Assembly (NCBI GenBank): GCA_046707105.1
Contig: JBJKOV010000089.1
Location: forward strand, 1 to 42,876
DNA from: Thermodesulfovibrionales bacterium
Lineage (GTDB): Bacteria; Nitrospirota; Thermodesulfovibrionia; Thermodesulfovibrionales; UBA6898
Reading direction: 5' to 3'
DNA: 42,876 bases
Below, piece after piece: positions 2,752 to 24,295 of the stretch. The position numbers were made by a program, and so were the translations under genes. The notes beneath the pieces are model-generated. The model made no database searches and was not told where the DNA came from. It saw only the letters and a list, made by a program, of their open reading frames with translations. The first letter of the stretch is position 1; every line of letters starts with the position of its first letter.

Positions 2752-2790
2752 GCTGTTTCCATGTCAGCCGCCCGCAGGCTGTTCCTGCCG

Positions 2791-4980: not shown

Positions 4981-5059
4981 CTTTCTGCCTCGTTTTTTTC
5001 AGAACCGGTTTTTATAACTTATGCTCTCCTGCAAAAGTACTTGCGAGTGCCTCATTCAA

Positions 5060-5854: not shown

Positions 5855-5994
5855 ATCTCCGACTTAAAACAGTCTGTTATTTGGAGCCCGCGTATAAAGT
5901 CTTTTCCGTCCGGTTGTCTTACGCGCTTAACCCAATTTGCCCGCGGACCCTATTTAGTATACTTAAAGTTCGTAACTATTATAAAGGACGACAT

Positions 5995-6021
5995 AAAAAA
6001 TAAACGCGGGCAAAAGCCCGG
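5995..6021 (-). terminator. Possible weak intrinsic terminator after the outer-membrane protein gene
   Basis: On the minus strand a 5-bp stem (cgggc/gcccg, + strand 6007-6011 and 6016-6020) has a 4-nt loop. It is followed by GTTTATTTTTT. The stem is short, so support is limited. Confidence 0.3.
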
Positions 6022-6045
6022 GGCCGGTCGGATGTTTCACATTGG

Positions 6046-7812
6046 TTACAACGAGCCAGTAATCCTCAAGAATGCCGTATTGCTTACGAAATTGTAGTCG
6101 GAAAAAGAGGAGTCTCTCCTGGTATATACATAACCTATGTCGCTTTTAAGCCATTTCTGGAACTCATACTGCAGCCCCACAGTCGCCTGGTATATGTTGT
6201 CTTTAATGTCAGCTGCATTCCCCTCCGCCGTAACAACGCCTTTGTATCGTTCGTTAGTGTAAGTGAGGTCCGCCAGGCCGGTGATCTTCGATGTGAAGAG
6301 CTGCTGGTATTCGGCGCCTATCTGATTGGTTATCGTATACAGGAATGCCGCTACATTCGTCTCATCCGCCTTCCTGAATCCCGTCACAGTAAGCGATGTC
6401 TTCGGAGTAAAATGATGCTTTATCTGGGCTTCAGTTATAAATGTTCCGACGCTCTGTGAAGGGCCGGTGAGGTCTTTGACCCCGTAACCAGCTTTCACCA
6501 TCCCCTTCGATTTAGCCGTTATGTCCCACTGTATGCCCGCCAGAAATTGATGTTCCCTGCTGTCGAGAGTGGAGTCGCTGACGTAGGAAATATCGATAAA
6601 CCTGTATTCCAGGAAAGCGGCCGTTTTCGGTTTAAACTTATAAAGGAGATATCCGGAAAGGGAGTTGTCCGTCCGGTCCATAAACTGGTTTCTCTGGTCG
6701 TTGTAATGCACCAGGAAGTTGGAATAATCGAGCCGGACACTCAGACGGTTGCCCGTATCAACACGCGCAGCGGCTTCAAGAAGATTATTGTAGAATCTGT
6801 CAATCTGCCCCGGTTCGGTCGATACGCTCAGCCCGCGTGTTTCAAAGGATTTCACGAAAAGGTCGAAGTCGTTGGCCGAAAATTTATTGCCGTTATATTC
6901 AACCCTGCCGTACCCGGTGTGGCTGACGGCATTCCCGTACGGGGAATTCGCCGACGGCAGGGGTATGTCAGCCCGGTAAAGAAGATAGGCCTGATACCTC
7001 CTCACGACCTCTGGGGCGTAGCTCGTGAAGACAAGCCCCCCCGGCATACGGTTCGATGTCTCGTCGAGCACCAGATGCTTCTCGGCAACTCGCGGCAGTG
7101 AAAGCCAGATCTCCGGCGTCAGAACGGTGCTGAGATTGGTCTTCTTGTTGTCTTTCGTCGCAAAGGCGTTGTCGGTGTAAATTTCCGTGACCGCCAAAGA
7201 AGGATGGAAATAGCTCCCTCCTCTTCCGAATATTTCCCTGTACGTTCTCAGGGTGCCGGTAGGGCCTTCTTCCTGCTGCTGAGTTCCAGGCACGCCGTTG
7301 TCTCCGGCCTCACTCACAAGGAAAGCGCCCTCCGGAAGTTTACTCCCGCCGGAGGAAACGTCCGTGGCAACTGAGCGTCCGGCTGGTAGCGGTCCCCGGA
7401 CCGGATCGGATTTAACCGACGAGTACTCTGTCGCAACGCCCGTTTTTAGCGACGGGTCTTCATTTCCGCTCACTGCCATCGAAGCAGAGACTGTCTTCAC
7501 CTTATTAAGACCCGGAGCCTTGGTCGTCCGGTCTCCCATCTTCCTGGCTAACACCCTGTAAACCTCTTTTTTATGAGATGTGACACCCCTCACAATGAAT
7601 ACCTTATAACCTTCCCGTCTCAGTTTCCTGGAAAGGTCTTCAGCGTTCTTTTTATGCCGGAAGGCCCCCCTCTGGAGATACCCAGGGCGGTGAGCCTGCC
7701 CGTTTGACTTGGCGGCCGGAACAACCGTCTCATGTCCCGAAGTAGTGGCAGACTGGGCGATCGCAGGTAAACTGAGAGAAAAGACTAATATGACTAACAG
7801 CATCTTCTTCAT
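6046..7812 (-). CDS. SPOR-domain protein fused to an outer-membrane beta-barrel (exopolysaccharide-locus OMP)
   Basis: The ORF track gives 6046-7875. I prefer ATG at 7812 (MKKMLLVILVFSLSLPAIAQS signal peptide, AAGGAA upstream). The N-terminal SPOR-like module is GYLQRGAFRHKKNAEDLSRKLRREGYKVFIVRGV..VYRVLA, followed by a low-complexity linker. The C-terminal ~380 aa show alternating aromatic/hydrophilic beta-strand patterns (YQATVGLQYEFQKWLKSDIGYVYTRRDSS). Confidence 0.6.
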   Translation of the reverse strand: MKKMLLVILVFSLSLPAIAQSATTSGHETVVPAAKSNGQAHRPGYLQRGAFRHKKNAEDLSRKLRREGYKVFIVRGVTSHKKEVYRVLARKMGDRTTKAPGLNKVKTVSASMAVSGNEDPSLKTGVATEYSSVKSDPVRGPLPAGRSVATDVSSGGSKLPEGAFLVSEAGDNGVPGTQQQEEGPTGTLRTYREIFGRGGSYFHPSLAVTEIYTDNAFATKDNKKTNLSTVLTPEIWLSLPRVAEKHLVLDETSNRMPGGLVFTSYAPEVVRRYQAYLLYRADIPLPSANSPYGNAVSHTGYGRVEYNGNKFSANDFDLFVKSFETRGLSVSTEPGQIDRFYNNLLEAAARVDTGNRLSVRLDYSNFLVHYNDQRNQFMDRTDNSLSGYLLYKFKPKTAAFLEYRFIDISYVSDSTLDSREHQFLAGIQWDITAKSKGMVKAGYGVKDLTGPSQSVGTFITEAQIKHHFTPKTSLTVTGFRKADETNVAAFLYTITNQIGAEYQQLFTSKITGLADLTYTNERYKGVVTAEGNAADIKDNIYQATVGLQYEFQKWLKSDIGYVYTRRDSSFSDYNFVSNTAFLRITGSL

Positions 7813-7943
7813 AATTTCCTTGATATTCTTGACAAAAAAGCCTTTATTGTCAAGCAAAATCAGCTTTGTGGACAAGGAATATCCTCTTTTTTTTGTACGC
7901 CGGCAGATACTTTTTCCGGGACCTCTGATATAATTTATTTCAG

Positions 7944-11132: not shown

Positions 11133-11579
11133 ATGAAATTATCACTTTTTCCTTTTATGGCATGCGGCATCTTCTGCGTATGCCTTCTGACAGCTGCCCC
11201 GGCAAGGGCCGCGGCTGACGGGGGCGGCCAACTTTCCCCGGGAGTGTTGCCGCCGCCCGAGATTGTCGCCCCTGCGGAGATAGCTGAACTCAGGGGTGTT
11301 GACCACGCCACGTTCAGGTGGAGCGGCGTGCAGGGTGCGGTCGCTTATCATCTCGTGCTCGCCAGGGACAGGCGGTTTAAGAATATTGTCGAAAATACTT
11401 TCATAAACGGCACATCCTACACTTTGGGTAACACGAATTACGGGACCTATTTTTTGGAAATCAGTTCGGTCTCGGCAGGACGCTCCGAGGGCCCCTTTTC
11501 ACAAAGGCGGAGTTTTATTATAGTCCCGCCCCCGCCGGCGGGAGTTTCGCCCGGAGAATTACCCGAAAACGGCGGTTAG
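11133..11579 (+). CDS. Secreted hypothetical protein with an FN3/Ig-like module
   Basis: 148 aa with SD GGGAGGAG upstream and signal peptide LFPFMACGIFCVCLLTAAPARA. An FN3-like pattern is present (FRWSGVQGAVAYHLVLARDRRFKNIV...GTSYTLGNTNYGTYFLEISSV). Confidence 0.5.
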   Translation: MKLSLFPFMACGIFCVCLLTAAPARAAADGGGQLSPGVLPPPEIVAPAEIAELRGVDHATFRWSGVQGAVAYHLVLARDRRFKNIVENTFINGTSYTLGNTNYGTYFLEISSVSAGRSEGPFSQRRSFIIVPPPPAGVSPGELPENGG

Positions 11580-11624: not shown

Positions 11625-12641
11625 TCACTTTTTTTCGCTGTTGCCGCTCCCCTTTTCGTCCTTCTTTTCAAAAGCGTCCTTCGCGCAGCGGAACCCGAAA
11701 TTGAGGTACCGGTCGGCCGGGTCGAACCAGTAGCGGTAAGGTGTTCTGATCACCAGTTCGCCATAACTGTCGTACCAGGAACCGCCCCGCATCACCTTGA
11801 ACCATCCGATTTTGGGGCCTTCGGGGTTTTCCTTAGGCGGTGTATCCGACTTCTCTTCTTTTGCAAGAGATATAGTCGACCTGGGCACGCCCAACAGCCT
11901 GGCCGACACATTAATGGTATCCTCTACAGTCTCATAGCAGAAGTTGCAGTAGTTCTGCCTGTACCAGTCGTTGACCCACTCCCAGACATTCCCGGCCATA
12001 TTTACTGCACCATAACAGGAAGCGCCCTCAGGAAGCGAATCGACCGGAACCATAACGTTGAATCCTTCGTTCTTCCATTTCCGGTTGTACCTGGCTTTGG
12101 TGTCGTCCGGCATAGTATTCCCCCAGGGATATATCCTCCCGTCGTCGCACCTGGCGGCTTTCTCCCATTCTGCCTCAGACGGGAGATGCCTGCCCTTCCA
12201 GCGGCAGTAGGCGTCAGCCCCGTACCAGGACACATTGTTGGCGGGATAGTCTTCAAAACCCTTCCTCGGGACATATTTCTCCGGGTCTTCAGGGGTCTCG
12301 ATCTCCTTGCCGTCTACATTGGATATCCCCATGACCGTAGAATAACGGTCGTCAGAAAAATACTTGTCGTCAGGGTTTCCCTTTTTGTTCAGGAACTCGG
12401 CAAACTGTTTTGCCGAAACCTCGGATTTGTCAATCAGATAGGCGTCCAGATACACATCATGTTCAGGCCTCTCATTGATTTCAGCCGAGTTGAGCCCCAT
12501 TCTGAACCATCCTGCGGGTACGGCGACCATATCCCGGTCCTTTGCGTCTTTCCTCGGGTTTGTTGTGACACACGCTGAAAGCAAAACGGACATCAGGAGG
12601 AACGCGAAAACGGTGCATATAATATTTTTCATCATTTTCAT
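11625..12641 (-). CDS. Formylglycine-generating-enzyme (SUMF1/EgtB/PvdO, FGE-sulfatase) family lipoprotein
   Basis: The ORF track starts at 12779. I prefer ATG at 12641, which gives MKMMKNIICTVFAFLLMSVLLSAC (lipobox LSAC). FGE-family motifs are present: VPAGWFRMG, RPEHDVYLDAYLIDKSEVS, NNVSWYGADAYCRWKGRHLPSEAEWEKAAR, GNVWEWVNDWY, RGGSWY and FGFRCAKD. Confidence 0.8.
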   Translation of the reverse strand: MKMMKNIICTVFAFLLMSVLLSACVTTNPRKDAKDRDMVAVPAGWFRMGLNSAEINERPEHDVYLDAYLIDKSEVSAKQFAEFLNKKGNPDDKYFSDDRYSTVMGISNVDGKEIETPEDPEKYVPRKGFEDYPANNVSWYGADAYCRWKGRHLPSEAEWEKAARCDDGRIYPWGNTMPDDTKARYNRKWKNEGFNVMVPVDSLPEGASCYGAVNMAGNVWEWVNDWYRQNYCNFCYETVEDTINVSARLLGVPRSTISLAKEEKSDTPPKENPEGPKIGWFKVMRGGSWYDSYGELVIRTPYRYWFDPADRYLNFGFRCAKDAFEKKDEKGSGNSEKK

Positions 12642-12804: not shown

Positions 12805-13278
12805 TCAGGTATTTCTTCGGCAGATAATTTTTCGCCTGAAAAGCCGCAGGCGACCATAGTGACAGTACGATTCGAAGAGACTGACCACTGCCCTGAGGTA
12901 ATTTATTTTCCTCTGCAGCGACGCTTCCATATGTATCTTTTCAGGGCCGAATTCGGGACAAACCCGCTCTATCCTACAGACCTTGCCCAAAATTTCATCG
13001 TGCCGCACCGGTGCATCAAAAGACCTGAGGGCGTCTCCTCTTGTCTGAAACATGTACTCGCCCTTTCTGGCCCGTTTTCTTCTGACAAGCCTGTGGAGCA
13101 CAGGGAAACCCGGTTGACCTTCAACAAATATGAGGTCGCCTCTTCGCAGCTCGGTCTCCGGCACTTTTTTTATGGTGACCACTTCTCCTCCCCTGAGAAA
13201 AGGCACCATGCTCCGGCCCGTCACTTTTACGCGAAGGGATAAGCCGCTGTCCAGAATATCTCTGAAAAAACCCACCAT
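12805..13278 (-). CDS. S24/S26-family serine peptidase, archaeal/ER-type (Ser-His) signal-peptidase-I-like
   Basis: Motifs are VTGRSMVPFLRGGEVVTIKK (SM nucleophile box), GDLIFVEG, VLHRLV (His where LexA/SPase-I-type enzymes have Lys) and FQTRGDAL..D. The start is uncertain. The track ORF extends to 13521 but would overlap the upstream gene by 190 nt. ATG at 13278 (MVGFFRDIL) is the first non-overlapping Met. Confidence 0.6.
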   Translation of the reverse strand: MVGFFRDILDSGLSLRVKVTGRSMVPFLRGGEVVTIKKVPETELRRGDLIFVEGQPGFPVLHRLVRRKRARKGEYMFQTRGDALRSFDAPVRHDEILGKVCRIERVCPEFGPEKIHMEASLQRKINYLRAVVSLFESYCHYGRLRLFRRKIICRRNT

Positions 13279-13330
13279 CTCCGCCTTTGCCGGAGAGACA
13301 GGCGCGGGTACGGGTATATCCGGCTTTCCA

Positions 13331-14212
13331 TTATCTCGACACAAAGTCTTCAAGAATATCCGCCTCGATATCGGAAGTAAAATAAAGTAAATACGAAGGC
13401 ACGCGGGAAACCAGCTCCTCGACAAAAGAAAAAATTCTGCCGATCGCCTCCTTGTCATACCAGGGGATCGACAAGACCGGCATAAACCTTCTGAAGGCAT
13501 CCGCCTCCGTAATCTGTTCAATCCTGTTTTCTTCGCTTTGGACCAGGAAGAAGATTTGGGAAAGCGGAGCGGACTTGTTTACGGCAATGCCGGCGTCTCC
13601 GGGCCATGGTGTCCCGAAGATTACAAAAGAGTCTTCGATCTTTCTCATGATTATCCTGTCGTCACTCAAGCCCATGCATCCGGTCTTCCCAAGGAGCTGT
13701 CTCGATATGGTGGATTTTCCAGCCCCTGACCGGCCCGCGAAGATATACCCTCTTTCTTCAAAGACAACACCGGCCGAATGGACAATCGCACCGTTCCTCA
13801 CAGAAAGAAAATACATGAGCAGGATCTGATCCAGCGGATAATGCAGCGGGTTTCTCACAGTTGCTCCGCTACCCGACTCATTACAGAACATAGCGACATT
13901 TCTGTTCTGAGGACAGAATCTGACCAGCCTTTGGAGGCCTGCCCACGGCGCTTCAAAAAAGAGTACATAATCGCCCCTGTCGCAGAATAACGACCAGTCA
14001 TTCTCAATCTTAAAAAGGCTTTTCATCCCCTGGATTTCGGGAATCCGGCCAAAAAGGAGATCAACGGCGATTTGGTCGATTTCGTCCTGTTCAATTTTGG
14101 CCCCTTTGACAAACCCCGCATATGCCGGATCAGGAAGAAAAAGGTCCTTTTTGGGCTGGGGATTTAAGTCGAACTTCATTCCTCCGATACGGTAGAGATA
14201 TTCTGTAGACAA
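13331..14212 (-). CDS. HPr-kinase-like P-loop protein (HprK-related putative peptide/protein kinase)
   Basis: 293 aa with a TTG start and GGAGG 7 nt upstream. The P-loop is GYIFAGRSGAGKSTISRQL, followed by GLSDDRIIMRK. This resembles the HprK/P GxSGxGKSE ... ADDRV arrangement. Confidence 0.65.
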   Translation of the reverse strand: MSTEYLYRIGGMKFDLNPQPKKDLFLPDPAYAGFVKGAKIEQDEIDQIAVDLLFGRIPEIQGMKSLFKIENDWSLFCDRGDYVLFFEAPWAGLQRLVRFCPQNRNVAMFCNESGSGATVRNPLHYPLDQILLMYFLSVRNGAIVHSAGVVFEERGYIFAGRSGAGKSTISRQLLGKTGCMGLSDDRIIMRKIEDSFVIFGTPWPGDAGIAVNKSAPLSQIFFLVQSEENRIEQITEADAFRRFMPVLSIPWYDKEAIGRIFSFVEELVSRVPSYLLYFTSDIEADILEDFVSR

Positions 14213-14230: not shown

Positions 14231-14395
14231 TTAGGAGCCACTGGAGGCGCAAGGCTGCGAGATCACACATCCAGGAGGAAAAGGCCCACCTAGTGTCTTT
14301 GTCTTGCAGCCGTTGACACTCATCGTCTCCTCTGCCGCGAGTTCTATTACCCTCAGGACGGGCTTTTCGTACACCATTTTTTTTTCTTGTTCCAT
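14231..14395 (-). CDS. Candidate RiPP precursor peptide (54 aa; 48 aa if the second ATG at 14377 is used)
   Basis: MEQEKKMVYEKPVLRVIELAAEETMSVNGCKTKTLGGPFPPGCVISQPCASSGS. The ATG at 14395 is preceded by GAGGTG and lies 17 nt after the radical SAM stop. The N-terminal half is charged and aliphatic (leader-like). The C-terminal half is Gly/Pro/Ser-rich with C-x12-C-x5-C and a Ser-rich tail. It sits between the rSAM and kinase-like genes. Confidence 0.55.
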   Translation of the reverse strand: MEQEKKMVYEKPVLRVIELAAEETMSVNGCKTKTLGGPFPPGCVISQPCASSGS

Positions 14396-14412
14396 CAAGC
14401 ACCTCACAGTAA

Positions 14413-15486
14413 TTATTTGCTGACTGCTGAATACCTCGCTTTTCCTAGGGCACACAGGTAATCGGAAAGAAGATTTTCATCACCTTTTTCCAACAGGAAA
14501 AAACCGGGGCAATAACCGCAAATCATTGAAGTATTGCAATCACGGCAGCGTCGTTCCGGGTTGGCCTTCAGGTCTCTCAACCCCGCCATTCTTTTCCAGC
14601 CCTCGGCAAAACTCCCAGCGAGCAAATCATGTCCAAAATGCTTAACCATCAGACAAGGCATGAGAACTCCTTTTGGGCTTATATGGAAGTTCGTGACCCC
14701 TGCGCCGCAGCTATATAACCTGTCGTTTAACTTCACGCCTCCATATCTGCCCACGACTTTTTTCCATTCGGCAAACCTGCTTTCGTCAGACAGTTCCTTA
14801 TCCAGGGCATCATAAACGGGGACCCTGAGAGAAAGCGGAGACATGTCACCGTCGAAACGGGGAAAGATGGCCGCATCGAACCGGAATTTGACACCATAGG
14901 ACTTTGCAATGCGCTCTATATCGTAAAATTCATGACTATTCACAGACATCAGGATCGTCTTGATTGTAAGGTTTGTCCCCGTTTTCAAAAGCTCCTCTAT
15001 CCCATTCATACAGGCACGAAATGATCCGGGAACTCCGGTCACCCTTTCATACGTCTCCTGGGTGGCACCGTAGAGGCTTATCTCGACGACATGCGGTGGT
15101 AGGTCGGCAAAAAGATCCGTCACCTTTCGGTTGATCAGCGTACCGTTTGTAAATACGGTCACGATCATCCCGTTATTCTTGGCGCGTCCATAGACGTCTC
15201 CGAAGTCCGGCCTCAAAAGAGGCTCCCCCCCGGTTATAAGCAGATAAAGGCATCCGGCATCTCTAATCTCATCCAGCAGCGAAAAGACCTTACTGGTATC
15301 CATTTCACTTCGCCCCGGATTTTTATCGTATCTGGCAGAACCGACATAGCAATGGATGCACCTGAGATTGCAACGCTGGGTAAATTCGAGGGCCCCGGAT
15401 ATGGGGACCCTCAGCCGGTTCACCTTCCGGCAGAATTCAGTAAAATACTCAGTTCCGTTCACAGAGGACTGGCATTCGAGCATCAC
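14413..15486 (-). CDS. Radical SAM / SPASM-domain peptide-modifying enzyme
   Basis: 357 aa. The CxxxCxxC radical SAM cluster motif is CNLRCIHCY, and GGEPLL is the SAM-binding motif. The C-terminal auxiliary-cluster cysteines are SPASM-like (YSCGAGVTNFHISPKGVLMPC ... CRDCNTSMICGYCPG). The start overlaps the PqqD stop by 4 nt (ATGA). Confidence 0.9.
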   Translation of the reverse strand: MMLECQSSVNGTEYFTEFCRKVNRLRVPISGALEFTQRCNLRCIHCYVGSARYDKNPGRSEMDTSKVFSLLDEIRDAGCLYLLITGGEPLLRPDFGDVYGRAKNNGMIVTVFTNGTLINRKVTDLFADLPPHVVEISLYGATQETYERVTGVPGSFRACMNGIEELLKTGTNLTIKTILMSVNSHEFYDIERIAKSYGVKFRFDAAIFPRFDGDMSPLSLRVPVYDALDKELSDESRFAEWKKVVGRYGGVKLNDRLYSCGAGVTNFHISPKGVLMPCLMVKHFGHDLLAGSFAEGWKRMAGLRDLKANPERRCRDCNTSMICGYCPGFFLLEKGDENLLSDYLCALGKARYSAVSK

Positions 15487-15791
15487 TCAACGACCTCTAT
15501 GAGACCGGCTTTCAAGAGTTCTTCCATAAAGTCACGGACATCTCTTTCCGCTTCTTCCCGTCCGACATCGAAACGATCCAGGAGTTCGGCCGCTATCGCA
15601 TCACGATCGCTTTTTTCATCGAGACATCGCCAGATGTACGCCGCGACGGGGTTAAGCGAAAAGATCTGCTGCATGTCGGCAAGCTTTCCTTTTATCGGCA
15701 CAAGGATAGTCTCACCTGCTATTTCTCGTGAGACGATCTCGCCGCGCTTTCTAAATGAGCTTTTCAGTGCCTTTTCTTCCAGACTCATCAT
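15483..15791 (-). CDS. PqqD-family protein (RiPP recognition element / peptide chaperone)
   Basis: 102 aa showing the PqqD pattern (IAGETILVPIKG..IFSLNPVAAYIWRCLDEKSDRDAIAAELLDRFDVGREEAERDVRDFMEELLKAGLI). Its start codon overlaps the giant gene stop (ATGA, 15788-15791). Confidence 0.85.
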   Translation of the reverse strand: MMSLEEKALKSSFRKRGEIVSREIAGETILVPIKGKLADMQQIFSLNPVAAYIWRCLDEKSDRDAIAAELLDRFDVGREEAERDVRDFMEELLKAGLIEVVE

Positions 15792-18700
15792 TTTATACTG
15801 AGCGCCGGGTCTCCGATGATATTAAAGCTGTTAAGGATAAACGATGGCCTGCCCTGAGCCTGGTAGCCCGCCATCGCCTTGATAACGGCGTCCCCAAGGG
15901 TAATCACCCCGGGCTGGAAGGCTGCAGTGTAAAAGCCCTGCCCGAGGATTTTCGCATCGGCGTTCAGTGAGAAGCCGGATGGCGCCCACGAGGAGACTAT
16001 CCCACCCCCGTTCTTCACAATAAGGGCGTCCGTCAGTGATTCAAAACCGGGGAAGGCATATTGGCCCACCATGCAGGTAAGGCCAATGAGCACTGGGTAC
16101 CGGCCGTTGCTCAGCCCGGCAACATCGTCCACGGTCAGGAGTCCATTCTGTGTCAGCTGGTCGATGCCTGCATGTCCCATGTAATTTACAAACTGCATGC
16201 CGCGATTCAGGCCGTCGAAAAGAAGACTTCTTGCCTGATCGAGCTGATAATCCGAAAGGTATATCTCCTCCACCAGATGGGCGGCAAATATTTGAGCTAT
16301 ATCGTTGCTGTCTTTCGGGAAATTACCGGCGCCATCAGGGCTGTCTGCAAGCATCATGACCCCGTCAATTCTGTCCCCTTCGAAGGACTTGATCTTATCG
16401 AGGACAGTTTGCATTTCGTCATTTGATACGACGGGAATCCTGCCGACGGCGATCTCCGGGACATTGTCTCCGTTGAAATCCCCAAGAACGTTGTCCGAAG
16501 GCACCAAACCCCACGGCGTACCGACCATGAGCGGTGGGATAAGGTTGCCTCCGAAGCCCATTACGTTCTTGTAGTCATATGTTCCGGCGCCGACAAGTAC
16601 GGCATACGACGGCTTCTTCTTCCAATTGTTATAAGCATATTGGAGGAAACTTTTTATCGCCCCTGGATCGTACATCCCGTAGTTGAACTCGTCCATGATA
16701 CTTTCGAGCGAAACCACCATAGTCGTCATTGTCTTGCTCTGCCTGTAATCGGCAAGCATCTGAGCGGCGTCCTTGAGCTCTTCCGGTGCAATTACAATGT
16801 AGTCGGCGGCCTTCTTCTTGCGCTTCAAATCCGCCGAAGGCAGAGCGGCTACTGTTTTCCCGGTAATAACGGCAGCGGGAGTGAAAGCGACATATACGGC
16901 ATTGGCGCTGTCCGGATAGAACTTCACCGAGTAATTCCCGGCCTGGCCCCCTGTCGACGCTGGAGCCACAACCTCCGGTTTCAGGGGGTCTGTAATATTA
17001 AAGACCGCTATCGAGGGCGTCGAGAACCCCGCCACCGTTATGGACGAGCTGCCTCCGGCTTTGAAGCGGAGGTAGTCGTTAACCGCCTCATACCGCCTCG
17101 CGTACGTCACGTCGAAGGAATCGATCATGAACAGGCTGTACGGCACGTTCGAGTCGAGAACAGCCTTTACCTCAAGGACATTATCACCCTGCCTGATCAA
17201 ACTTTGGTCTATATTCGCGACAACCGAGTAAGGGCTGATGCCGCTCCATCTTCCCTCGGCAATGTTCACTCCGTTCAGACTTATAACCGCATGGTGCTCG
17301 GGGTTTACGCCTGTCGACGTTATTCCGTACAGCCTCACCGTGATGGCGGCCGTATGGGCGCCGGTGGAGACAGAGTATGCCTTAAAGTTAAAGTCTTTCG
17401 TATCGAGACCCGGCGTGTCTGCCATTACATAATCCCAGAACCAGTAATCGGAATCAGGGTCGGTGGTAATGCCGGGGGCAGGCATGAGATCCTGTTCCAT
17501 GTGAATGGTATCAGCAAAAGAGTCCTGCACTGCACCCGCTAGAACCGCCTTGCCACCCTTAACCGAATTCATCAAAGATCCTTTCGCAGCATTCAGCCAA
17601 TAGATGTTCTCATCAGTGTAGACGTTGTTGATTCCCTTCCCGAAGAAGAAGAGCCCGGCATCGCCATTCGAGGGTGTATAAGAAACCTGGCCGTCGCTGC
17701 AGCTCAATGCGAGGTTGCCGGTCTTGATCATTTGCTCCACCGACTGCAGAGGCATATTGAGTTTGGCCGAGATATCGGAGGCATCGAGGTAATAGATGCC
17801 GTCGCCGGGGACCGGGATCTTAATCGCCGAGCCTTTGCGGGTCTGCTTCAGCGCCCTCGTATTCGCTTGTTCCTGCTTGGCAGCTGCAAGCCTTGAGGCG
17901 GCGGCTGCGGACATCCCGCGGACCTTCCTGCTGAAGGTGTCAGTCACCTGCAGGAAGTCCGAATCCGGCGTGGAGGCCGCATTGCGGACCTTTGTCGCCA
18001 CGTCTCCCTTGATAGTGATCTCCAGGGTGCCGTCCGAGGCAAACCTTTTCACTATATCACCGGCGCTGCTGCCGCCGAGGTCCACGGTGAACGGTCCGTA
18101 GACCAGGCTGCCGCCCTTGTTCTGGACCTCCACAATCTTATAAAGCTGTTTTCCGGAGGGAACGGCCGACTGATCGATCAGCCGGTATGTACCACCCGCC
18201 CCGGAGGTGAGAAAACCTGGAAGGAGGTACTTGTCCACTTTAACATACCTGCGAGTATTTGCGTCATACCGGTAAAGGTAAAAGCCGACTGTATTGCGTT
18301 CGGAGACTGTTTCCCATTCAACCACGACCTTGCCTCCCTGGACGTAGGCATCGAACCCGGCAAGGGATACCTCCGTCGGAGTAACTGTAGTGCAGCTCTG
18401 GTCGTTCGAAGGATTTACGTCCACGGGGATTGAGTTGCTAAGCGTTGCGCAGTTCTGGATTGCCGTGCCGCCGGTGCCGTCATTCGGATAAACATTGATG
18501 GTAAGTGTCGCAGTCGCATCTCTGTCGATCCTCCCGACATTCCATACGCCCGTATTATTATCGTAGGTCCCCTGGCTCGGATTGTTCGAGACATACGTCA
18601 CTTCAGATGGCAGAAGATCGCTGAGGTCCACCTTAAAAGCATGGTTCGTCCCGACATTTGTGAGAGTTATAGTGTAAACCAGCTCTGCGGAGGCTCCGGT

Positions 18701-21700
18701 ACCCGAAGGCGCCGCGTTGTCCACGGTCTTTACGACAGAGATATCAACAGGCACGGCCACCGTAACGTCCTCGGCAGTCGTCGAAAGTTCGTCAAAGGCA
18801 AGGCAGTTTGCGTTGGTGCTCGTGCATGACACGTTGTTTTGGTACGTGCCAGCCGGGACGGATCCGTCCACATTGGCAACAAACTGTATCGACAGCACAC
18901 CTTGAGGTCCGATAGTCCAGGCGCCCCACGTCGGGTGATTGGCACCCGCAGCAGGATCGACCGTCGCAGTTCTTTGACTTCCTGTGCCGGTCAGACTCAT
19001 GGACGTTGTACTCGCATACGTGAATCCGGACGCGAAATTGTCCGTTACCTGAACGCCTGTTGCCGGCGTTGCAGCGGGATTGGTCACAGTGAGAGTGTAC
19101 GTCGCGGTGGTGCCGGTGGTTGAGTTCGTCACATTCGGCGTGCTCGTGCTCTTGTCCGGGACAAGGGCGCAGACAGCCGTCGAAATCGGCGCGCCGCTGT
19201 TCGAGACCACGCCTCCCGGAATTTCTGTCGAGACGATAGTGGCGGTATTGTTATACGACCCGCACGCCGACGGCTGCACCGTCAGATGGAGGGCGCCCTC
19301 TGTGCCAGGAGCGAGAGTGCCGAGGCTCCAGGTAACAGTTCGCGTACCCGCGTTGAAGGTGCCGCCGTTATCGGCGGATATGAAACCAAGACCCGCGGGA
19401 AGAACGTCGGTCACCACAACATTGGTCGCGTTCGATCCGCCCGTATTCTTGTAGTAGAAAGAGTAAATGAACGTCGGGAACGGATTTCCGTAAGCAACAA
19501 GGGATGGGGCAGACTTGTCCAGTATGAAGGCCGGAGTATCCGTCACGTTGATTGATGCAGACGCCTGTTTCGTGGCCGTGTTGATCGAAGAAGCCGTGGC
19601 CGTGTTTGTCACCGTCGTGGTGCCGGCAGGCATGGGTTTGTTGACGGTAACATTAAAGCTCATCGCCCTTGTAGCTTTGCCCGGCAGCGTGCCGACGGCG
19701 TATACGATCCTGTTTAAGACCGCATCGAAATAGGCATTATCGCCGTCATTGGCGTCGGTCTGGCCGGCCGCCTGATAGACAATAGTTCCCTTCTTATATG
19801 ACATATAAGTCGGAACCGGATCGGTGACAACCACTCCCAGGGCGTCTTGAGACCCGACGTTTGCAACCGTCATCGACCAGGTCACATTCGCCCCCGCAGC
19901 CACAGGCCCGGCAGGGAATACGGTCTTGGTTATATTAAGATTCGGCCCGTTCAGGATCGTCACCCTCACCGTGTTGCTGTACTGCTGGGCGCCATACGCT
20001 ACGATGCCGGTGTTGTCTTTATAAGTCGTCCCCAAAGGCACTCCCGTCAACGATACGTTCATCTGGAAGGTGAGGCTCACGGAAGAATAGGCCGGGACTG
20101 ACAAATTCGTCCATGTGATCGTGCCGGAATTATAGATGCCGCCGTTTGTGGCGGATCCGACGACATATGAATAGTAGGCGCCGATCGGAAGGGCATCGGT
20201 AACGTTCACAGTTGTCGCAGACCCGGAGCTGTTTAGGACCTTAAGCGTGTACGTCGCCGTATCCCCGGGATAAAGGATAGTCTTGTCGACAGACTTCATG
20301 ATCGCCACGTTCGTCGCTACAGCCGTAGTCGCCGAACTGGTTATCGGCTGGGTCTGATTGGTCGTGAGCTGCGAGGTATTGACCAGCGTGTATATTCCTG
20401 ACGGGAATGGATTCTGCACCGTCACGGTGACTACGAGGGTTCCCTGCTGGCCGGCGGTTATCGTTCCCATAGTGGGGTTGTCATTGGAACTGACTGGACA
20501 GGTCAGCACCTGTCCCGACTGCGTGCAGGGGCTGGGACTTGTCGGACCTCCGTTGAGCGACGCAGTGGCAAAAGTCACTCCTGCGGGCAGGGTGTCTGTA
20601 ATTTGCGAGCCTGTCACATCCGAGCCGCCGTTGTTGCCGAAATTGATGCTGTAAGTCAGGGTGTCGCCGGGCACTGCGCTTATCTTGTCAACTGTCTTGT
20701 TCATGACCACCGACGTTCCCTGGTAACAGAAATGGCTTGGCGTCGGGACCTGTTTTCCATTGGACGTAGTGAAGATGCCGTCATAATAATAGGTCAGATC
20801 AAGGACCTGATTATTCGTATTGGTGCATGCCTCAAACCTCCAGTAAAGACGATGGCCCGCCTGGGGAGCGCTCGTCGGCGTGACGGTCATCTGGTTAAGC
20901 TGGGGCGTCTGATCGGCTCCCGTATAATTAACAGTCTCCTGTCCAAGAAGCGTCTTTGCGCCGGACGCGGGGTCGTAGTCATAGACAGAGGCGTACATGG
21001 TCGTAGGATTGCCGTTTGTCTTTTCGGTGTACCACTGAGCCGTGAGGGGCGTTGACGAACCGTTGTTTACAAGCGGCGGGTCCTGATAAAAATCGGCTAC
21101 CAACGTCAGGGGATTCGTCGGGGACGAACATCCGTTCGATGTGAGGTAAACATGGTGCAAAGCAGAAGGCCCGCTGCCGGCCGCAGTGGTATTGGCGATC
21201 TCCTGGCTTCCATCAAAGCCCACGTTCAGGAACTTGTTATGGAAATAATACGTCTGGCCCTGGCAGGTCATAGTTGATCCCGTCAGACCCACCGAGTAGC
21301 TGCTTGAAGCCGGCGGCGCGAAATTAGTCGCCTGGATCGACGCCGTATTCGTCGACGGATTGTCCCCGGCGTAAGGTTGAGACTGGGAATCCAGTGCCCT
21401 GAGCACCAGATTGCAGACACCCGATGCATTTGGAGCAAGGGTCCCGATGTTCCATGTCACCGACGTAACAGGATTGCCCGACGTCGTGCCCGCCGGGCAA
21501 TTTGTTCCCGCGGCCGAGGACACATAAGTCCAGCCCACAGGAACCGGATCGGTAATGGTGGTGCCTGCCGCGCTCGCATCGCCGACATTGGAAAAAGCGA
21601 TCGTGTAGGTCACGTTCGCTGTCGTCCCCTGCTGTATCGTGGGGTCTATAAATATCTTGTCGCCATTCTTCTGGATGGTAAGAAGGGGCGCAGCCACGCC

Positions 21701-24133
21701 GGTCACGATGATCGTTACGTTAGCGCTCTTCGGCGCTGTCTCGTTGGAGTAGATCGTTGCGGTGTTCAGTAATTTAGTCGGCGCAAGCTGCGGATACGGG
21801 CTCGTCACCTGGGCCATGAAAGATACGGTGAACGGTCCGGAATCCGATTGCAGATTGCCGACGTTCCAGGTGATCATCTTCGTCGTCGCGTTGTAAGTGC
21901 CGCCGTTTGAGGCGGAAACAAAGGTGAGCCCCGAAGGGAGGACATCTGTTATATACACCCCGGTTACATTTGCCGGAGAGTTGTTCGAGTAGGTGATTGT
22001 ATAGGTAATGTTGCCCCCCGGCGCCTGGGTCGCGACACTCGCGCTCTTTGCAATCGTGAGGTCAGGCGCTCCCACGCCGATCTGCACATAATTGCACGAT
22101 ATGTTCGTCGTCTGCCCCCATGATGCCACATTAACATTGGAACCGCATGTATTTTCATACGTCCCGGCCGTGTTCGGGGCCTGCGCAGTAAAGACGATCG
22201 TCCCTGTCCCTCCGGCGGAAATAGTTTTAGCAGGGGAAAAGGTCCATGTAACGGTATTTGTCGACACCGCAGGCGTCCCCGGAGCCAGGGTGCCCCCATT
22301 GGTGCTGACGTATGTAAAATATTGTGCCGGTGAAGAGCCGGCCACCGTCGGCAAATAATCCGTGACGTTGTTTACCTGCACGGTATTGCTCGTATTATTG
22401 TGCACCGTGACCGTGAACTGGACATTTTGTCCTGTTGCCACTCGACCGGGATTCGCGGTCTTATCGACAACCACCGTCTCCCCGCAGGAATTGTTTGACA
22501 AGCTGGAGCCGTAGACAATTCCCGGCGTGGGGTCAGGGTTTACTTTGTCCGTGGACGACGCCGTAGTGCCGTCCGGCAAAGTGTCTCCCGCCTGGACAGA
22601 CTGCAGAAAGCTCCATGTGTGGTAGCCGATATTGTTGGTTGCCACTACGCCGATCAGATAACTGCCGGCCTGAAGTCCGCTCCCGGCAGTGTTCCATGAA
22701 TACGTCCACTGTCTCGGGTCGGTCGCCGACTGTGTGCCCGCCCCGATGAGGACCCAGGACGAACCGTCATCAGCCAGACCGTTGCCGTTCGCATCGTAGT
22801 AGTAATAGAAGTTCGCCGCAGTAACATTTGTGTTGCACGCGGTATTGGTAATAGCGCCCCGCACCTGCGCTGTAAGGCCGGTCGTGCAGCCTGCGGGACT
22901 GGCCGTGACCGAGTCCACGACAGGCTGTGGAACAATCTCGGGACCATTGGGACCGCAGAGCACAACCAGATCGCCAAAGGGGACACAGGCGTCCGGCGTG
23001 GCAAGGAGGCTTTCGTTGGCGACGACATCCTTCTGGAACGGGTTAGTGAGGCTGTTTGCGGTCGAAAAGAAAAGCCCCGTCGGGTTCGTGCAGTCGAAAG
23101 AATAGGTACCGTTGCTCAACATCCCGAGGGGGATCTCGTAGTCAACAAAGTATTCGTTCTCGTTGTCCTGGCTGCACTGATGAGCTGGAGGCGCAAGCAG
23201 GGGGTCGTAATCGCTGATGTCAACAGAGCGGGTGGTCCCATAGTCCCAGACCGTCTCGGCCGAACCGTTCGGCCAATAAGCGTCGGGAGAATTGGAATTG
23301 TGAAAATTGAGGATCAGGCCGGACGGTCCGGGCGCCGTTCCGTCATTTACGAATGCCGTCGGGTTATGCCACAGTTCGAAGATGTCCCTGTCGTGGGGGT
23401 CCATGTTCTGGCTCAGTGTGTTGCTGTATACCGTGCGCAGGATGTCCACCGGATAAGCCGGCATGCCGGTCGAGCCGTCGAGCTGCATCCCGAATTCCCT
23501 GTATCCGTCGCCGTCGGTATCCATCAGCACCGTCCACTGGGCAGACTTCCACGGGTCCACATCGCTGAAGGCGCTCGGGGCCGGACCCGTAGCGTAAGTA
23601 TTCGGTATCTGCTCGACCCTCCACCTGAAAAAAAACATCTGATAGGCCGGATCGTAATCAATATATATGCTGGGGAGTGATTGGTCGGGGCAGCCCGAAC
23701 TGACGTTGACGTAGTTCTGCGGCCTGGTCCCTCCATTTGAAGGGTCAAGAACGCGGGGATCATTGATCGAGGCATTTTCCCAGGTATAGGCCATCCATGA
23801 ACTATCGCCCGGCCATGGGGCCGGAGAGAAGTTCGGACCATAATTCCCGCCAAGTGCTCCCCCGTTCCAGTACGGCACATAGCCAAGGACATTGGCCTCT
23901 GCCTTAACGGGCGGTATGGCGGCAAGAAGGAGAGAGATAACGAAGATAATGAAGGCATAGGGAAGCAACTTAAAGCCGCAACGTCCAACCGGTAATGACA
24001 TTTTTTGACACTTGTCATGACAAATAAGTTCAGAATGCGCGGCATTTGAGCCAATGCATTCCCTGATAAGAGCCTGTCTTCCGTCGGCCATAATCCTCCC
24101 CCTCACACTCCAAAACATTTTTAGACATCCCAT
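15788..24133 (-). CDS. Giant (up to 2781 aa) secreted DUF11-repeat protein with C-terminal peptidase C25 (gingipain-like) domain
   Basis: A single uninterrupted 8.3-kb ORF. Possible starts are 24133, 24091 (GGGGGAGGA just upstream) and 24001. The signal-like segment is FKLLPYAFIIFVISLLLAAIPPVKAEA. About nine DUF11-type repeats are present. The C-terminal C25 motifs are YIVIAPEEL, NYMGHAG and GLTCMVGQ. Confidence 0.9.
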   Translation of the reverse strand: MGCLKMFWSVRGRIMADGRQALIRECIGSNAAHSELICHDKCQKMSLPVGRCGFKLLPYAFIIFVISLLLAAIPPVKAEANVLGYVPYWNGGALGGNYGPNFSPAPWPGDSSWMAYTWENASINDPRVLDPSNGGTRPQNYVNVSSGCPDQSLPSIYIDYDPAYQMFFFRWRVEQIPNTYATGPAPSAFSDVDPWKSAQWTVLMDTDGDGYREFGMQLDGSTGMPAYPVDILRTVYSNTLSQNMDPHDRDIFELWHNPTAFVNDGTAPGPSGLILNFHNSNSPDAYWPNGSAETVWDYGTTRSVDISDYDPLLAPPAHQCSQDNENEYFVDYEIPLGMLSNGTYSFDCTNPTGLFFSTANSLTNPFQKDVVANESLLATPDACVPFGDLVVLCGPNGPEIVPQPVVDSVTASPAGCTTGLTAQVRGAITNTACNTNVTAANFYYYYDANGNGLADDGSSWVLIGAGTQSATDPRQWTYSWNTAGSGLQAGSYLIGVVATNNIGYHTWSFLQSVQAGDTLPDGTTASSTDKVNPDPTPGIVYGSSLSNNSCGETVVVDKTANPGRVATGQNVQFTVTVHNNTSNTVQVNNVTDYLPTVAGSSPAQYFTYVSTNGGTLAPGTPAVSTNTVTWTFSPAKTISAGGTGTIVFTAQAPNTAGTYENTCGSNVNVASWGQTTNISCNYVQIGVGAPDLTIAKSASVATQAPGGNITYTITYSNNSPANVTGVYITDVLPSGLTFVSASNGGTYNATTKMITWNVGNLQSDSGPFTVSFMAQVTSPYPQLAPTKLLNTATIYSNETAPKSANVTIIVTGVAAPLLTIQKNGDKIFIDPTIQQGTTANVTYTIAFSNVGDASAAGTTITDPVPVGWTYVSSAAGTNCPAGTTSGNPVTSVTWNIGTLAPNASGVCNLVLRALDSQSQPYAGDNPSTNTASIQATNFAPPASSSYSVGLTGSTMTCQGQTYYFHNKFLNVGFDGSQEIANTTAAGSGPSALHHVYLTSNGCSSPTNPLTLVADFYQDPPLVNNGSSTPLTAQWYTEKTNGNPTTMYASVYDYDPASGAKTLLGQETVNYTGADQTPQLNQMTVTPTSAPQAGHRLYWRFEACTNTNNQVLDLTYYYDGIFTTSNGKQVPTPSHFCYQGTSVVMNKTVDKISAVPGDTLTYSINFGNNGGSDVTGSQITDTLPAGVTFATASLNGGPTSPSPCTQSGQVLTCPVSSNDNPTMGTITAGQQGTLVVTVTVQNPFPSGIYTLVNTSQLTTNQTQPITSSATTAVATNVAIMKSVDKTILYPGDTATYTLKVLNSSGSATTVNVTDALPIGAYYSYVVGSATNGGIYNSGTITWTNLSVPAYSSVSLTFQMNVSLTGVPLGTTYKDNTGIVAYGAQQYSNTVRVTILNGPNLNITKTVFPAGPVAAGANVTWSMTVANVGSQDALGVVVTDPVPTYMSYKKGTIVYQAAGQTDANDGDNAYFDAVLNRIVYAVGTLPGKATRAMSFNVTVNKPMPAGTTTVTNTATASSINTATKQASASINVTDTPAFILDKSAPSLVAYGNPFPTFIYSFYYKNTGGSNATNVVVTDVLPAGLGFISADNGGTFNAGTRTVTWSLGTLAPGTEGALHLTVQPSACGSYNNTATIVSTEIPGGVVSNSGAPISTAVCALVPDKSTSTPNVTNSTTGTTATYTLTVTNPAATPATGVQVTDNFASGFTYASTTSMSLTGTGSQRTATVDPAAGANHPTWGAWTIGPQGVLSIQFVANVDGSVPAGTYQNNVSCTSTNANCLAFDELSTTAEDVTVAVPVDISVVKTVDNAAPSGTGASAELVYTITLTNVGTNHAFKVDLSDLLPSEVTYVSNNPSQGTYDNNTGVWNVGRIDRDATATLTINVYPNDGTGGTAIQNCATLSNSIPVDVNPSNDQSCTTVTPTEVSLAGFDAYVQGGKVVVEWETVSERNTVGFYLYRYDANTRRYVKVDKYLLPGFLTSGAGGTYRLIDQSAVPSGKQLYKIVEVQNKGGSLVYGPFTVDLGGSSAGDIVKRFASDGTLEITIKGDVATKVRNAASTPDSDFLQVTDTFSRKVRGMSAAAASRLAAAKQEQANTRALKQTRKGSAIKIPVPGDGIYYLDASDISAKLNMPLQSVEQMIKTGNLALSCSDGQVSYTPSNGDAGLFFFGKGINNVYTDENIYWLNAAKGSLMNSVKGGKAVLAGAVQDSFADTIHMEQDLMPAPGITTDPDSDYWFWDYVMADTPGLDTKDFNFKAYSVSTGAHTAAITVRLYGITSTGVNPEHHAVISLNGVNIAEGRWSGISPYSVVANIDQSLIRQGDNVLEVKAVLDSNVPYSLFMIDSFDVTYARRYEAVNDYLRFKAGGSSSITVAGFSTPSIAVFNITDPLKPEVVAPASTGGQAGNYSVKFYPDSANAVYVAFTPAAVITGKTVAALPSADLKRKKKAADYIVIAPEELKDAAQMLADYRQSKTMTTMVVSLESIMDEFNYGMYDPGAIKSFLQYAYNNWKKKPSYAVLVGAGTYDYKNVMGFGGNLIPPLMVGTPWGLVPSDNVLGDFNGDNVPEIAVGRIPVVSNDEMQTVLDKIKSFEGDRIDGVMMLADSPDGAGNFPKDSNDIAQIFAAHLVEEIYLSDYQLDQARSLLFDGLNRGMQFVNYMGHAGIDQLTQNGLLTVDDVAGLSNGRYPVLIGLTCMVGQYAFPGFESLTDALIVKNGGGIVSSWAPSGFSLNADAKILGQGFYTAAFQPGVITLGDAVIKAMAGYQAQGRPSFILNSFNIIGDPALSIK
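15791..16810 (-). other. Peptidase C25 (gingipain/PorU-like) catalytic domain of the giant protein
   Basis: The domain runs YIVIAPEELKDAAQMLADYRQ...VGRIPV...NYMGHAG...GLTCMVGQ. The His codon is at 16172-16174 and the Cys codon at 16073-16075, 33 residues apart. Confidence 0.75.
18380..22475 (-). other. DUF11 (conserved repeat domain) array, about nine units, with a ~200-aa insert (about 20710-21300)
   Basis: The recurrent pattern is x-L/I-T-I-x-K ... G-x-I/V-T-Y-T-I ... N-x-G ... V-x-V/I-T-D-x-L-P-x-G ... F/Y-V-S ... T-W-x-x-G-x-L. An example is PDLTIAKSASVATQAPGGNITYTITYSNNSPANVTGVYITDVLPSGLTFVSASNGGTYNATTKMITWNVGNL. Confidence 0.75.
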
Positions 24134-24295
24134 TATATTAAATCTGCCCGTCGATTGTAAATCGAAAAATATATAATCTACGTGGACTTAGGCATGGTAC
24201 ATCATCCTGAATGCCTGGTGCTTCATAGGCCCTGATACAACAAGTCCATCTATCCGCTTTTACTCTCCTCGGCCTTAGCCGAACATTGAATATTA

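Follow-up and report, generated by a model that had tools for sequence, protein, structure and literature searches.

The locus analysed here raises the question of what is encoded by a short open reading frame (ORF) lying on the minus strand between the gene of a radical S-adenosylmethionine (radical SAM, rSAM)/SPASM enzyme and that of an HprK-like, ScmC-family protein. The ORF is located in contig JBJKOV010000089.1 of a Thermodesulfovibrionales bacterium (Nitrospirota; assembly GCA_046707105.1); the whole stretch of 42,876 nucleotides that was analysed is called the window below, and coordinates refer to it unless another locus is named. A first-pass annotation, made from the letters alone, had proposed that the ORF encodes the precursor of a ribosomally made peptide that is modified after translation (RiPP), acted on by the adjacent PqqD and rSAM/SPASM proteins. 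This reading was right, and the ORF belongs to a widespread, uncharacterised RiPP system. We put at about 0.78 the probability that a RiPP is made from it, as the precursor (A peptide), by a conserved module of a C25-peptidase protein, PqqD, the rSAM enzyme, a kinase and, in part of the loci, a SipW-like peptidase, along the steps set out below.

On the minus strand, positions 14231–14395 comprise 54 codons plus a stop, from ATG 14395 to TAA 14233–14231, and Cys30, Cys43 and Cys49 of the product are spaced as C-x12-C-x5-C. Translation over 14231–14455 ends in VRCLMEQEKKMVYEKPVLRVIELAAEETMSVNGCKTKTLGGPFPPGCVISQPCASSGS followed by the stop codon; this longest ORF takes GTG 14455 as its start and thereby shares sequence with the 3' end of the rSAM gene (14413–15486). 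In all these points, and in the T9 run on the plus strand, the sequence bore out what had been reported. The statement that the peptide was unannotated held only in part. The 54-aa product itself is already present in a public protein collection as a called gene (P0001), and what it lacks is a name and a family model: neither the window peptide nor seven peptides of its family gave a match in Pfam or NCBIfam, even at E ≤ 10. The precursor peptide is, in other words, un-named rather than un-called.

Relatives of the peptide were collected by several kinds of search. A word-indexed protein search with the window peptide gave one relative only, and a contig scan of reference genomes with the rSAM protein gave one locus only, L001. 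A scan of metagenomes with a back-translated leader pattern yielded 75 loci; 11 more came from look-ups that started from the rSAM protein, and two from look-ups that started from the kinase. According to an exhaustive profile search with a hidden Markov model in 1.84 billion representative proteins, there are 199 hits at E ≤ 1e-3, nearly all 40–80 aa long. The number of distinct relatives recovered was 218, and conservation of the ORF at the protein level is seen in 86 fetched loci and 199 cluster representatives. The only reference-genome relative, L001, a Thermodesulfovibrionales metagenome-assembled genome (MAG) whose rSAM protein is 85% identical, encodes MEREKKQIYEKPVLRVIELAAEETLSIGCKSNIAPGRSVPTCAVTNCAGTGS at the same position. 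Six more rSAM homologues (51–74% identity), which come from metagenomes and from MAGs of Nitrospirae and Aminicenantes, have a 51–60-aa ORF of the same design directly downstream. The hosts include Nitrospirota/Thermodesulfovibrionales, Aminicenantes and the sources of many sediment and wetland metagenomes.

All 73 unique complete peptides from the loci contain exactly three Cys; 69 of them end in Ser and 4 in Thr, the last two residues are Gly-Ser in 63, and the first Cys is found at Y+20 in 71. The short representatives of the profile search (n = 147) follow the same design, 143 ending in Ser or Thr and 141 having three Cys, and the exceptions look truncated or frameshifted. A union set of 209 peptides was selected for three Cys and a Ser or Thr end, within which the last residue is Ser in 96% and Thr in 4%, with Gly before it in 88%. 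In the same set the first Cys is followed by Lys in 97% and preceded by Gly in 84%, the spacing between the second and third Cys is 4 or 5 in 189 peptides, and the third Cys stands 5–6 residues from the end in 198. The consensus of the 209 peptides can be written as [K/E-rich N-terminus]-Y-E-K-P-x-L-R-x-I-E-L-x-A-E-E-V-L-[A/G]-x-G-C-K-[T/L]-x(10-15)-C-x(4-5)-C-x3-G-S. Between the Cys, sequence and length are both free to vary, the length changes always keeping the frame, and Gly, Ser, Ala, Thr and Pro are abundant.

For the leader codons outside the scan pattern, pN/pS was 0.28, and the positional entropy at codon positions 1, 2 and 3 was 0.66, 0.44 and 1.71, respectively. This ratio together with the third-position variation indicates selection on the protein and not on the DNA. 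The first-pass annotation had named two outcomes that would speak against it, conservation of the DNA only and pairing of the rSAM homologues with some other substrate gene. The coding signal just described contradicts the first; as for the second, all seven homologues from the rSAM-first look-ups (51–87% identity) carry the small ORF downstream, and the same gene arrangement was found in both loci sampled from the kinase side. The small ORF is a genuine protein-coding gene with a leader under purifying selection and a hypervariable core. A conserved leader, a variable core and a position beside genes of modifying enzymes are the general features of a RiPP precursor.

Synteny was counted over non-redundant loci with enough flanking sequence. 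The rSAM gene is located immediately upstream of the peptide gene in 66 of 66 loci, the PqqD gene upstream in 37 of 38, and a gene with a C25 domain upstream in 22 of 23. Downstream, the ScmC/HprK-like gene was found in 54 of 57 loci and the SipW-like peptidase gene in 19 of 33, while an FGE-like gene follows only in the window and L001. In the window the module is encoded entirely on the minus strand, with its genes closely spaced or overlapping (Table 1). The conserved module consists of the C25-peptidase surface protein, PqqD, the rSAM/SPASM enzyme, the precursor and the HprK-like kinase, with or without the SipW-like peptidase. It is this constant synteny, along with conservation of the peptide as a protein, that supports its assignment to the PqqD and rSAM/SPASM pair.

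Table 1. Position and properties of the precursor gene, its parts and the neighbouring genes and sites in the window.
Feature	Position	Strand	Description	Basis
Precursor peptide gene	14231–14395	minus	54 aa plus stop, MEQEKKMVYEKPVLRVIELAAEETMSVNGCKTKTLGGPFPPGCVISQPCASSGS	Translation and family conservation
Leader segment YEKPVLRVIEL	14339–14371	minus	Residues 9–19; contains YxxPxL; invariant across the family	
Core region	14234–14308	minus	Cys30-Lys31 to Gly53-Ser54; three Cys (30, 43, 49)	
Shine-Dalgarno-like GAGGTG	14400–14405	minus	4–5 nt 5' of the conserved ATG 14395	
A9 run	14377–14385	minus	GAA AAA AAA ATG (Glu-Lys-Lys-Met); T9 on the plus strand	
Radical SAM/SPASM enzyme	14413–15486	minus	357 aa; C39xxxC43xxC46 and seven C-terminal Cys (260, 278, 314, 317, 323, 326, 345)	
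Discrete PqqD-family RiPP recognition element	15483–15791	minus	102 aa	PF05402, E 4e-21
HprK-like/ScmC-family P-loop kinase-like protein	13331–14212	minus	293 aa; TTG start after GGAGGA	PF27840, precomputed
SipW/Sec11-type (archaeal-type) signal-peptidase-I-like protein	12805–13344	minus	~160–180 aa; start uncertain: TTG 13344/13353 or ATG 13278	
Giant exported protein	15788–24133	minus	2781 aa by longest ORF; 9 DUF11/CLIPPER repeats and C-terminal Peptidase_C25	
Peptidase_C25 domain (gingipain-type, clan CD)	15797–16801	minus	Residues 2445–2779 of the giant protein	E 2e-71
Promoter-like TTTACA-18-TATAAT (11 of 12)	24132–24161	minus	Candidate promoter of the operon, upstream of where the giant gene probably starts	Consensus match only
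FGE-sulfatase/EgtB/PorK-like lipoprotein	11625–12641	minus	Lipobox LLSAC; signal MKMMKNIICTVFAFLLMSVLLSAC	

Individual loci depart from this order. In L051 the C25 homologue (3121–4296) lies downstream on the opposite strand; in L044, where the flank of the peptide covers about 4 kb, the roughly 2.6 kb upstream of PqqD gave no C25 match; and in L052 neither a PqqD nor a kinase match was detectable. In L087 (3128–9973 of a 365-kb ENA contig) the C25, PqqD and rSAM genes are split into many short called genes, with the 59-aa peptide and the kinase intact. This fragmentation is probably due to frameshift errors in the assembly rather than to decay.

The gene of the PqqD-family protein overlaps both neighbouring genes by 4 nt at its ends. 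The best NCBIfam matches of the protein are lasso PqqD chaperones and ScmD, all below the cut-off, and the nearest solved structures are the lasso B1 proteins TbiB1 (E 1e-4) and TfuB1, plus 9x90, a lasso-peptide PqqD-family chaperone. The discrete RiPP recognition elements (RREs) of lasso peptides and of linear polyphosphorylated peptides (LPP) are known to recognise the leader motif [Y/W]xxPx[L/V/I/F/A] (PMC13381572). In the family studied here YxxPxL is present and invariant in the leaders, as YEKPxL, and PqqD is nearest to lasso B1 proteins that bind such motifs; by analogy, the invariant YEKPxL fits the leader motif of these discrete RREs. In the first step of the proposed pathway, the leader segment YEKPxLRxIEL would be bound as a beta-strand by the discrete PqqD, as in the lasso B1 and LPP LppB systems, and in the second step PqqD would present the core to the rSAM/SPASM enzyme.

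The rSAM enzyme has both the CxxxCxxC motif and the SPASM auxiliary-cluster Cys motif expected of sactipeptide and ranthipeptide (sacti/ranthi) maturases. According to the NCBIfam analysis, it shows full-length but sub-threshold likeness to MftC, PapB, AlbA, GeoRSP maturases and ScmE/F, and its closest solved structures are PqqE and SkfB. Its scores against the curated sacti/ranthi maturase models are 69 bits for PapB (cut-off 340), 65.5 for AlbA (850), 56 for SkfB (300) and 85 for StsB (625); since these scores are below the cut-offs, the enzyme falls outside the curated families. The three invariant Cys of the hypervariable core are plausible candidate thioether donors, most likely of the sacti/ranthi type, with acceptors that would be defined by position and not by sequence. 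Since no acceptor is conserved at a fixed spacing, the thioether chemistry can only be inferred.

The most serious alternative accepts the peptide as a RiPP precursor and denies the thioethers: the rSAM/SPASM enzyme would form a C-C or C-O cross-link, epimerise a residue, generate formylglycine or carry out MftC-like chemistry at the C-terminus, and the Cys would be disulfide or metal ligands or substrates of another enzyme. The best NCBIfam likeness is indeed to AhbD-, MftC- and NirJ-type enzymes; the MftC model aligns nearly over its full length (25–323, 110 bits), and MftC works on a peptide C-terminus. The tight spacing from the third Cys to the terminus agrees with this, as does the lack of a conserved acceptor residue. 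However, it is typical of sacti/ranthipeptide donors that the core, hypervariable in other respects, has invariant Cys in odd number, maturases of the PapB, AlbA, StsB and SkfB types are also among the matches, and all NCBIfam scores are so far below the family cut-offs that none is diagnostic. We regard this alternative as unlikely, though it is the strongest competitor of the thioether reading.

The gene that follows the precursor gene encodes a protein related to the HprK/P kinases. It matches the NCBIfam model HprK_rel_B (HprK-related kinase B) at E 1e-8, and H145, the P-loop GxSGxGK(S)T (G160 to T168, with K166) and S183-D184-D185-R186 are invariant among its homologues. A PDB sequence search with the single kinase sequence gave nothing meaningful, and a profile of 40 sequences matched the HprK/P structures 1jb1/2qmh at E 0.03 over the stretch from the P-loop to SDDR. 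The AlphaFold2 model (pLDDT 89) was matched by Foldseek with PEPCK and HprK/P at probability 1.0 and TM-scores of 0.3–0.5. With its P-loop and DD(R) metal site, the protein is thus predicted to have a kinase fold of the PEPCK/HprK type.

Kinases of this kind are known to act on RiPPs. In pseudomycoidin, one to three phosphates are placed on the C-terminal Ser by the HprK-like PsmK, an activity abolished by D158A/D159A; in paeninodin, PadeK likewise phosphorylates the C-terminal Ser (PMC6993621). LppK polyphosphorylates one Ser, for which neither Thr nor Tyr can substitute (PMC13381572). Since the peptide ends in Ser, rarely in Thr, and is followed by the gene of such a kinase, it is most simply read as the kinase substrate. 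In the third step, the HprK-like kinase with its P-loop and SDDR metal site would add phosphate, perhaps more than once, to the C-terminal Ser side chain, like PadeK and PsmK; this assignment is made by precedent. The terminal SSGS had earlier been proposed as the phospho-acceptor. What is conserved, and what matches the C-terminal Ser phosphorylation of lasso peptides, is a terminal Ser or Thr preceded by Gly; the tetrapeptide SSGS is not the conserved feature.

Two kinds of peptidase accompany the module. The SipW-like protein scores 48.3 bits (E 1e-12) against TIGR02228, archaeal-type signal peptidase I, whose cut-off is 51.85; its boxes GRSMVP, VLHRL and TRGDA (Ser-His-Asp) could be aligned to those of human SEC11C and SEC11A, and a transmembrane segment is not obvious in the protein. 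LppS is the first SipW-like RiPP leader peptidase and needs the RRE to present the leader (PMC13381572). In the peptide family, the residue at –3 from the invariant Cys-Lys is Ala, Gly, Ser or Val in ~92% and that at –1 is Gly in 84%. These small-x-small residues suggest cleavage of the leader at G|C-K. In the fourth step, the leader would be cut at the site [A/G]-x-G|C-K by the cytoplasmic SipW/Sec11-like peptidase where it is present, assisted by the RRE as LppS is; alternatively or in addition, the exported C25 domain may cut the peptide after export.

The C25 domain is full-length, covering positions 1–373 of the 374 of PF01364. Its catalytic His (YxGH) and Cys are invariant in 23 loci, and the domain is apparently active. 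The N-terminal part of the protein is variable, with DUF11, SdrD_B, CarboxypepD_reg or LTD repeats and a total length of 1169 to 2959 aa, and complete examples begin with signal peptides. In the window, the longest-ORF start of the giant gene (24133) falls inside the promoter-like site. Since a signal-peptide-like segment begins after ATG 24001, 44 codons further in, this ATG is probably the true start. The number of promoter-like sites in the region was no higher than in shuffled sequences.

The obligatory C25 partner has no precedent in the RiPP literature searched. No paper was found that ties a gingipain/C25 protein to a RiPP leader peptidase, PqqD or radical SAM enzyme. A bolder and rather doubtful idea is that this would be the first RiPP pathway in which a gingipain-type C25 domain on a giant surface protein serves as a dedicated extracellular processing enzyme or as a PorU-like transpeptidase, so that a thioether-bridged, C-terminally phosphorylated peptide is trimmed outside the cell or attached covalently to the surface or to exopolysaccharide. 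If true, the family and, by extension, the LPP and paeninodin peptides of capsule loci would be tied to the building of matrix or capsule and not to antibiosis.

Several findings weigh against the reading of the module as a pathway of leader binding, thioether formation, phosphorylation and leader removal. The SipW-like peptidase is missing from about 40% of the loci, the C25 protein has a signal peptide whereas PqqD, the rSAM enzyme and the kinase are cytoplasmic, and the conserved module contains no exporter. The rSAM enzyme reaches the cut-off of no NCBIfam maturase family, and its best matches (AhbD, MftC, NirJ) are not thioether synthases. In the set of 209 peptides no conserved thioether acceptor stands at a constant distance from any of the Cys, and the thioether assignment draws on family resemblance and the three invariant Cys only. 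The TM-scores of the kinase model to HprK/P are modest. As the phospho-Ser of LPP is core residue 3 and not the C-terminus (PMC13381572), the phosphorylation site is assigned from lasso precedent only. Ten residues of the leader invariance were imposed by the pattern used in the metagenome scan. More generally, the modification chemistry is predicted from the genes.

Of the known systems, LPP (LppA/B/K/S) of Bacillota (Popov et al., Nat Commun 2026; PMC13381572) shares with that of the window a discrete PqqD-type RRE, a YxxPx[L/V] leader, an HprK-like kinase and a SipW/archaeal-type signal peptidase I. The trio of LPP genes is present in the window, and across the family the signal-peptidase-I-like gene occurs in 19 of 33 loci. 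The peptide could therefore be read as essentially a linear phosphorylated peptide of the LPP type, for which phosphorylation and SipW-like cleavage are the main steps and the rSAM and C25 proteins are accessory or act on another substrate, e.g., the giant protein. The RRE, kinase, peptidase and YxxP leader mirror the LPP core genes (PMC13381572), and the cluster adjoins a polysaccharide locus, as LPP clusters do. Yet the rSAM gene is the most constant neighbour of the peptide gene (66 of 66), always directly upstream, in contrast to the SipW-like gene, and the three invariant Cys have no role in LPP. Of the LPP leader YxxPxVLxHQxIxFETxxS only YxxPx[L] is common to both, the rest of the motif (VLxHQxIxFETxxS) being absent, and, unlike LPP with its phospho-Ser at core position 3, the family has no conserved Ser around the leader/core junction. 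The NTP (nucleoside triphosphate) transferase and the MsbA-type exporter of LPP are missing from the module, no NTP transferase being encoded in the operon and ABC exporters occurring only sporadically nearby. The window system differs further in its three invariant Cys, C-terminal Gly-Ser and C25 surface protein, and in its hosts, which are Nitrospirota, Thermodesulfovibrionales, Aminicenantes and sediment metagenomes as against the Bacillota of LPP. Since the rSAM enzyme is present, the leader and phospho-site differ, the NTP transferase and exporter are absent and the hosts are not Bacillota, the system is not LPP, and the LPP-type reading is distinctly improbable.

With the phosphorylated lasso peptides (paeninodin/PadeK, pseudomycoidin/PsmK; PMC6993621, PMC5067487) the system shares a B1-like RRE, the YxxPxL leader and an HprK-like kinase with a DD metal site, paired with a precursor whose last residue is Ser, the residue that carries the (poly)phosphorylation of lasso peptides. 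Neither a lasso cyclase (Asn-synthetase-like C) nor a B2 transglutaminase-type peptidase turned up among the module genes or the other scanned ORFs of the window, and for this reason the product is not a lasso peptide; the rSAM/SPASM enzyme stands in for the class-defining enzyme. Sactipeptides and ranthipeptides (AlbA, SkfB, CteB, PapB and SCIFF maturases) have in common with the window system an rSAM/SPASM enzyme with a 7-Cys region, a PqqD-type RRE and a variable Gly/Ser/Pro core with Cys. They differ in that the RRE of the window system is discrete and lasso-like, not fused, that its kinase and C25 protein are obligatory, and that its cross-links are predicted ones.

The SynChlorMet (SCM) cassette of Haft (TIGR04248–04251) likewise contains an ScmC-family HprK-like protein (PF27840), a PqqD and PqqE-like rSAM/SPASM enzymes. 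The scores of the window proteins are 24.3 bits for ScmC (cut-off 125), 42.1 for ScmD (100), 87 for ScmE (400) and 84.5 for ScmF (400), and one rSAM enzyme is present here versus two in SCM. The window system is not a member of SCM; its kinase belongs to the Pfam family ScmC, so that SCM is a sister system. According to the TIGRFAMs text, an SCM precursor is not known to have been identified, and a C25 protein is not known to be part of the SCM description. By analogy, the window system may work like a hybrid of an rSAM/SPASM Cys-cross-linked RiPP, a phosphorylated lasso peptide and LPP with its SipW-like peptidase. The literature search revealed no paper covering the peptide or linking ScmC, SynChlorMet or C25/gingipain to such clusters, and in the RRE-Finder paper the kinase, C25 and signal peptidase are unmentioned.

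The PqqD and rSAM/SPASM pair also resembles PqqD/E and MftB/C, which would make the peptide the precursor of a redox cofactor like pyrroloquinoline quinone (PQQ) or mycofactocin. This is very improbable: cofactor precursors have invariant cores, whereas here the sequence and length between the Cys vary, the scores of the PqqE, MftC and PqqD equivalog models are far under their cut-offs, and no cofactor-dependent enzyme is conserved nearby.

The translation start of the precursor is predicted at ATG 14395, the first in-frame start, which is conserved in the family; as reported earlier, it is supported by a Shine-Dalgarno (SD)-like motif at a distance of 4–5 nt, and 57 of 72 relatives have such a motif ahead of their first start. 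The ninth A of the A9 run is the A of a second in-frame ATG (14375–14377) at codon 7. The first-pass annotation had suggested that the run could govern the choice of start or be slippage-prone, and the idea of a functional device (start choice, or programmed transcriptional or translational slippage) draws on the position of A9 between two in-frame ATGs and on the recurrence of runs of 7–9 A in 15 of 72 relatives, one locus other than the window also having A9. The suggestion did not stand. In the closest relatives the second Met is missing, codon 7 being Gln in L001 and L002 (GAA-AAA-AAA-CAA in L001), Glu in L003 and Lys in L004, with Ile also seen, and internal Met residues are scattered across the family without conservation. 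A-runs recur because the N-termini contain ~30% Lys/Arg, and run length (1 to 9) follows the N-terminal Lys content; moreover, the second ATG has no SD motif, and no conserved product in an alternative frame was found. The A9 tract is a compositional by-product of Lys codons without a function of its own, and a device of this kind is scarcely credible.

The remaining explanation, that of a chance ORF or of untranslated DNA conserved for another reason, e.g., as the 3' untranslated region of the rSAM gene, takes its appeal from the shortness of the ORF and the lack of a matching family model, but is refuted by family conservation and the coding signal (frame, three Cys and terminal Ser-stop retained despite many in-frame length changes, pN/pS and third-position variation, SD-like motifs) and has a negligible probability.

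Two further candidates were rejected. The motif L-[AG]-x-G-C (L-A-V-G-C in the window) could be taken for a lipoprotein signal; this reading was rejected because the segment before the Cys, IELxAEEVL, is acidic and amphipathic and has no hydrophobic h-region. The FGE-sulfatase protein was considered as a Cys-modifying partner of the core and discarded, since it is an exported lipoprotein and, apart from the window, occurs in L001 only. Its gene follows directly after the SipW-like gene, the L001 version is 92% identical, and the protein is probably outside the RiPP system. A six-frame search of the window revealed no further precursor copies, and nothing convincing was found as a terminator or attenuator 3' of the peptide gene, where the gap to the kinase gene is 18 nt.

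With this analysis, a widespread family without a name gains a precursor, a leader motif and a gene set, occurring as at least 199 clusters at 50% identity in bacteria of anoxic sediment, wetland and groundwater. The toolkit of lasso peptides and LPP (YxxPxL leader, B1-like RRE, HprK-like kinase, SipW-like peptidase) is seen recombined with an rSAM/SPASM enzyme outside Bacillota. To our knowledge, LPP and paeninodins have been thought to be restricted to that phylum. The type of substrate to be sought in the SCM-type cassettes of Haft is now indicated. The strict pairing with C25 provides a testable link of modified peptides to cell-surface or exopolysaccharide biology, and five genes with a peptide of 50–60 aa are a set small enough for direct heterologous reconstitution.

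A set of genes for exopolysaccharide assembly and export is located a few kb downstream of the module (367–7875, minus strand), encoding a Wzy_C protein with TPR repeats, a Wzz-GNVR-P-loop protein, a Poly_export/SLBB protein and a beta-barrel porin of the BBP2 type. Homologues of these genes also lie beside the module in several loci that are unrelated: Wzz/GNVR in L009/L010 (9932–13089) and L067 (7090–8139), Wzy_C also in L009, and Poly_export in L064 (4941–5486). Capsule loci are likewise the setting of LPP and paeninodin clusters (PMC13381572). The polysaccharide setting together with the exported C25 protein suggests a role at the cell surface or in the matrix, which is to be taken only as a lead. 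An MsbA-like ABC exporter (ABC_membrane and ABC_tran; 26402–28309, minus strand) is encoded 2.3 kb upstream of the giant gene, and homologues with 41–49% identity were detected near the module in L011 (9199–11019), L022 (5200–6984), L020 (5274–5543) and L076 (3308–4024). It is a possible candidate for the peptide exporter and is outside the strictly conserved module.

Further genes were noted in the window. The region 33204–41054 on the minus strand encodes a 1396-aa multicopper-oxidase protein with an fn3 domain, followed by SCO1/SenC, a 580-aa periplasmic-binding-like protein and a thioredoxin-like protein, and looks like a copper-handling or oxidase locus unrelated to the RiPP module. On the plus strand, a 148-aa ORF with no Pfam match (11133–11579) is convergent with the end of the operon and is 93% identical in L001 (9910–10353).

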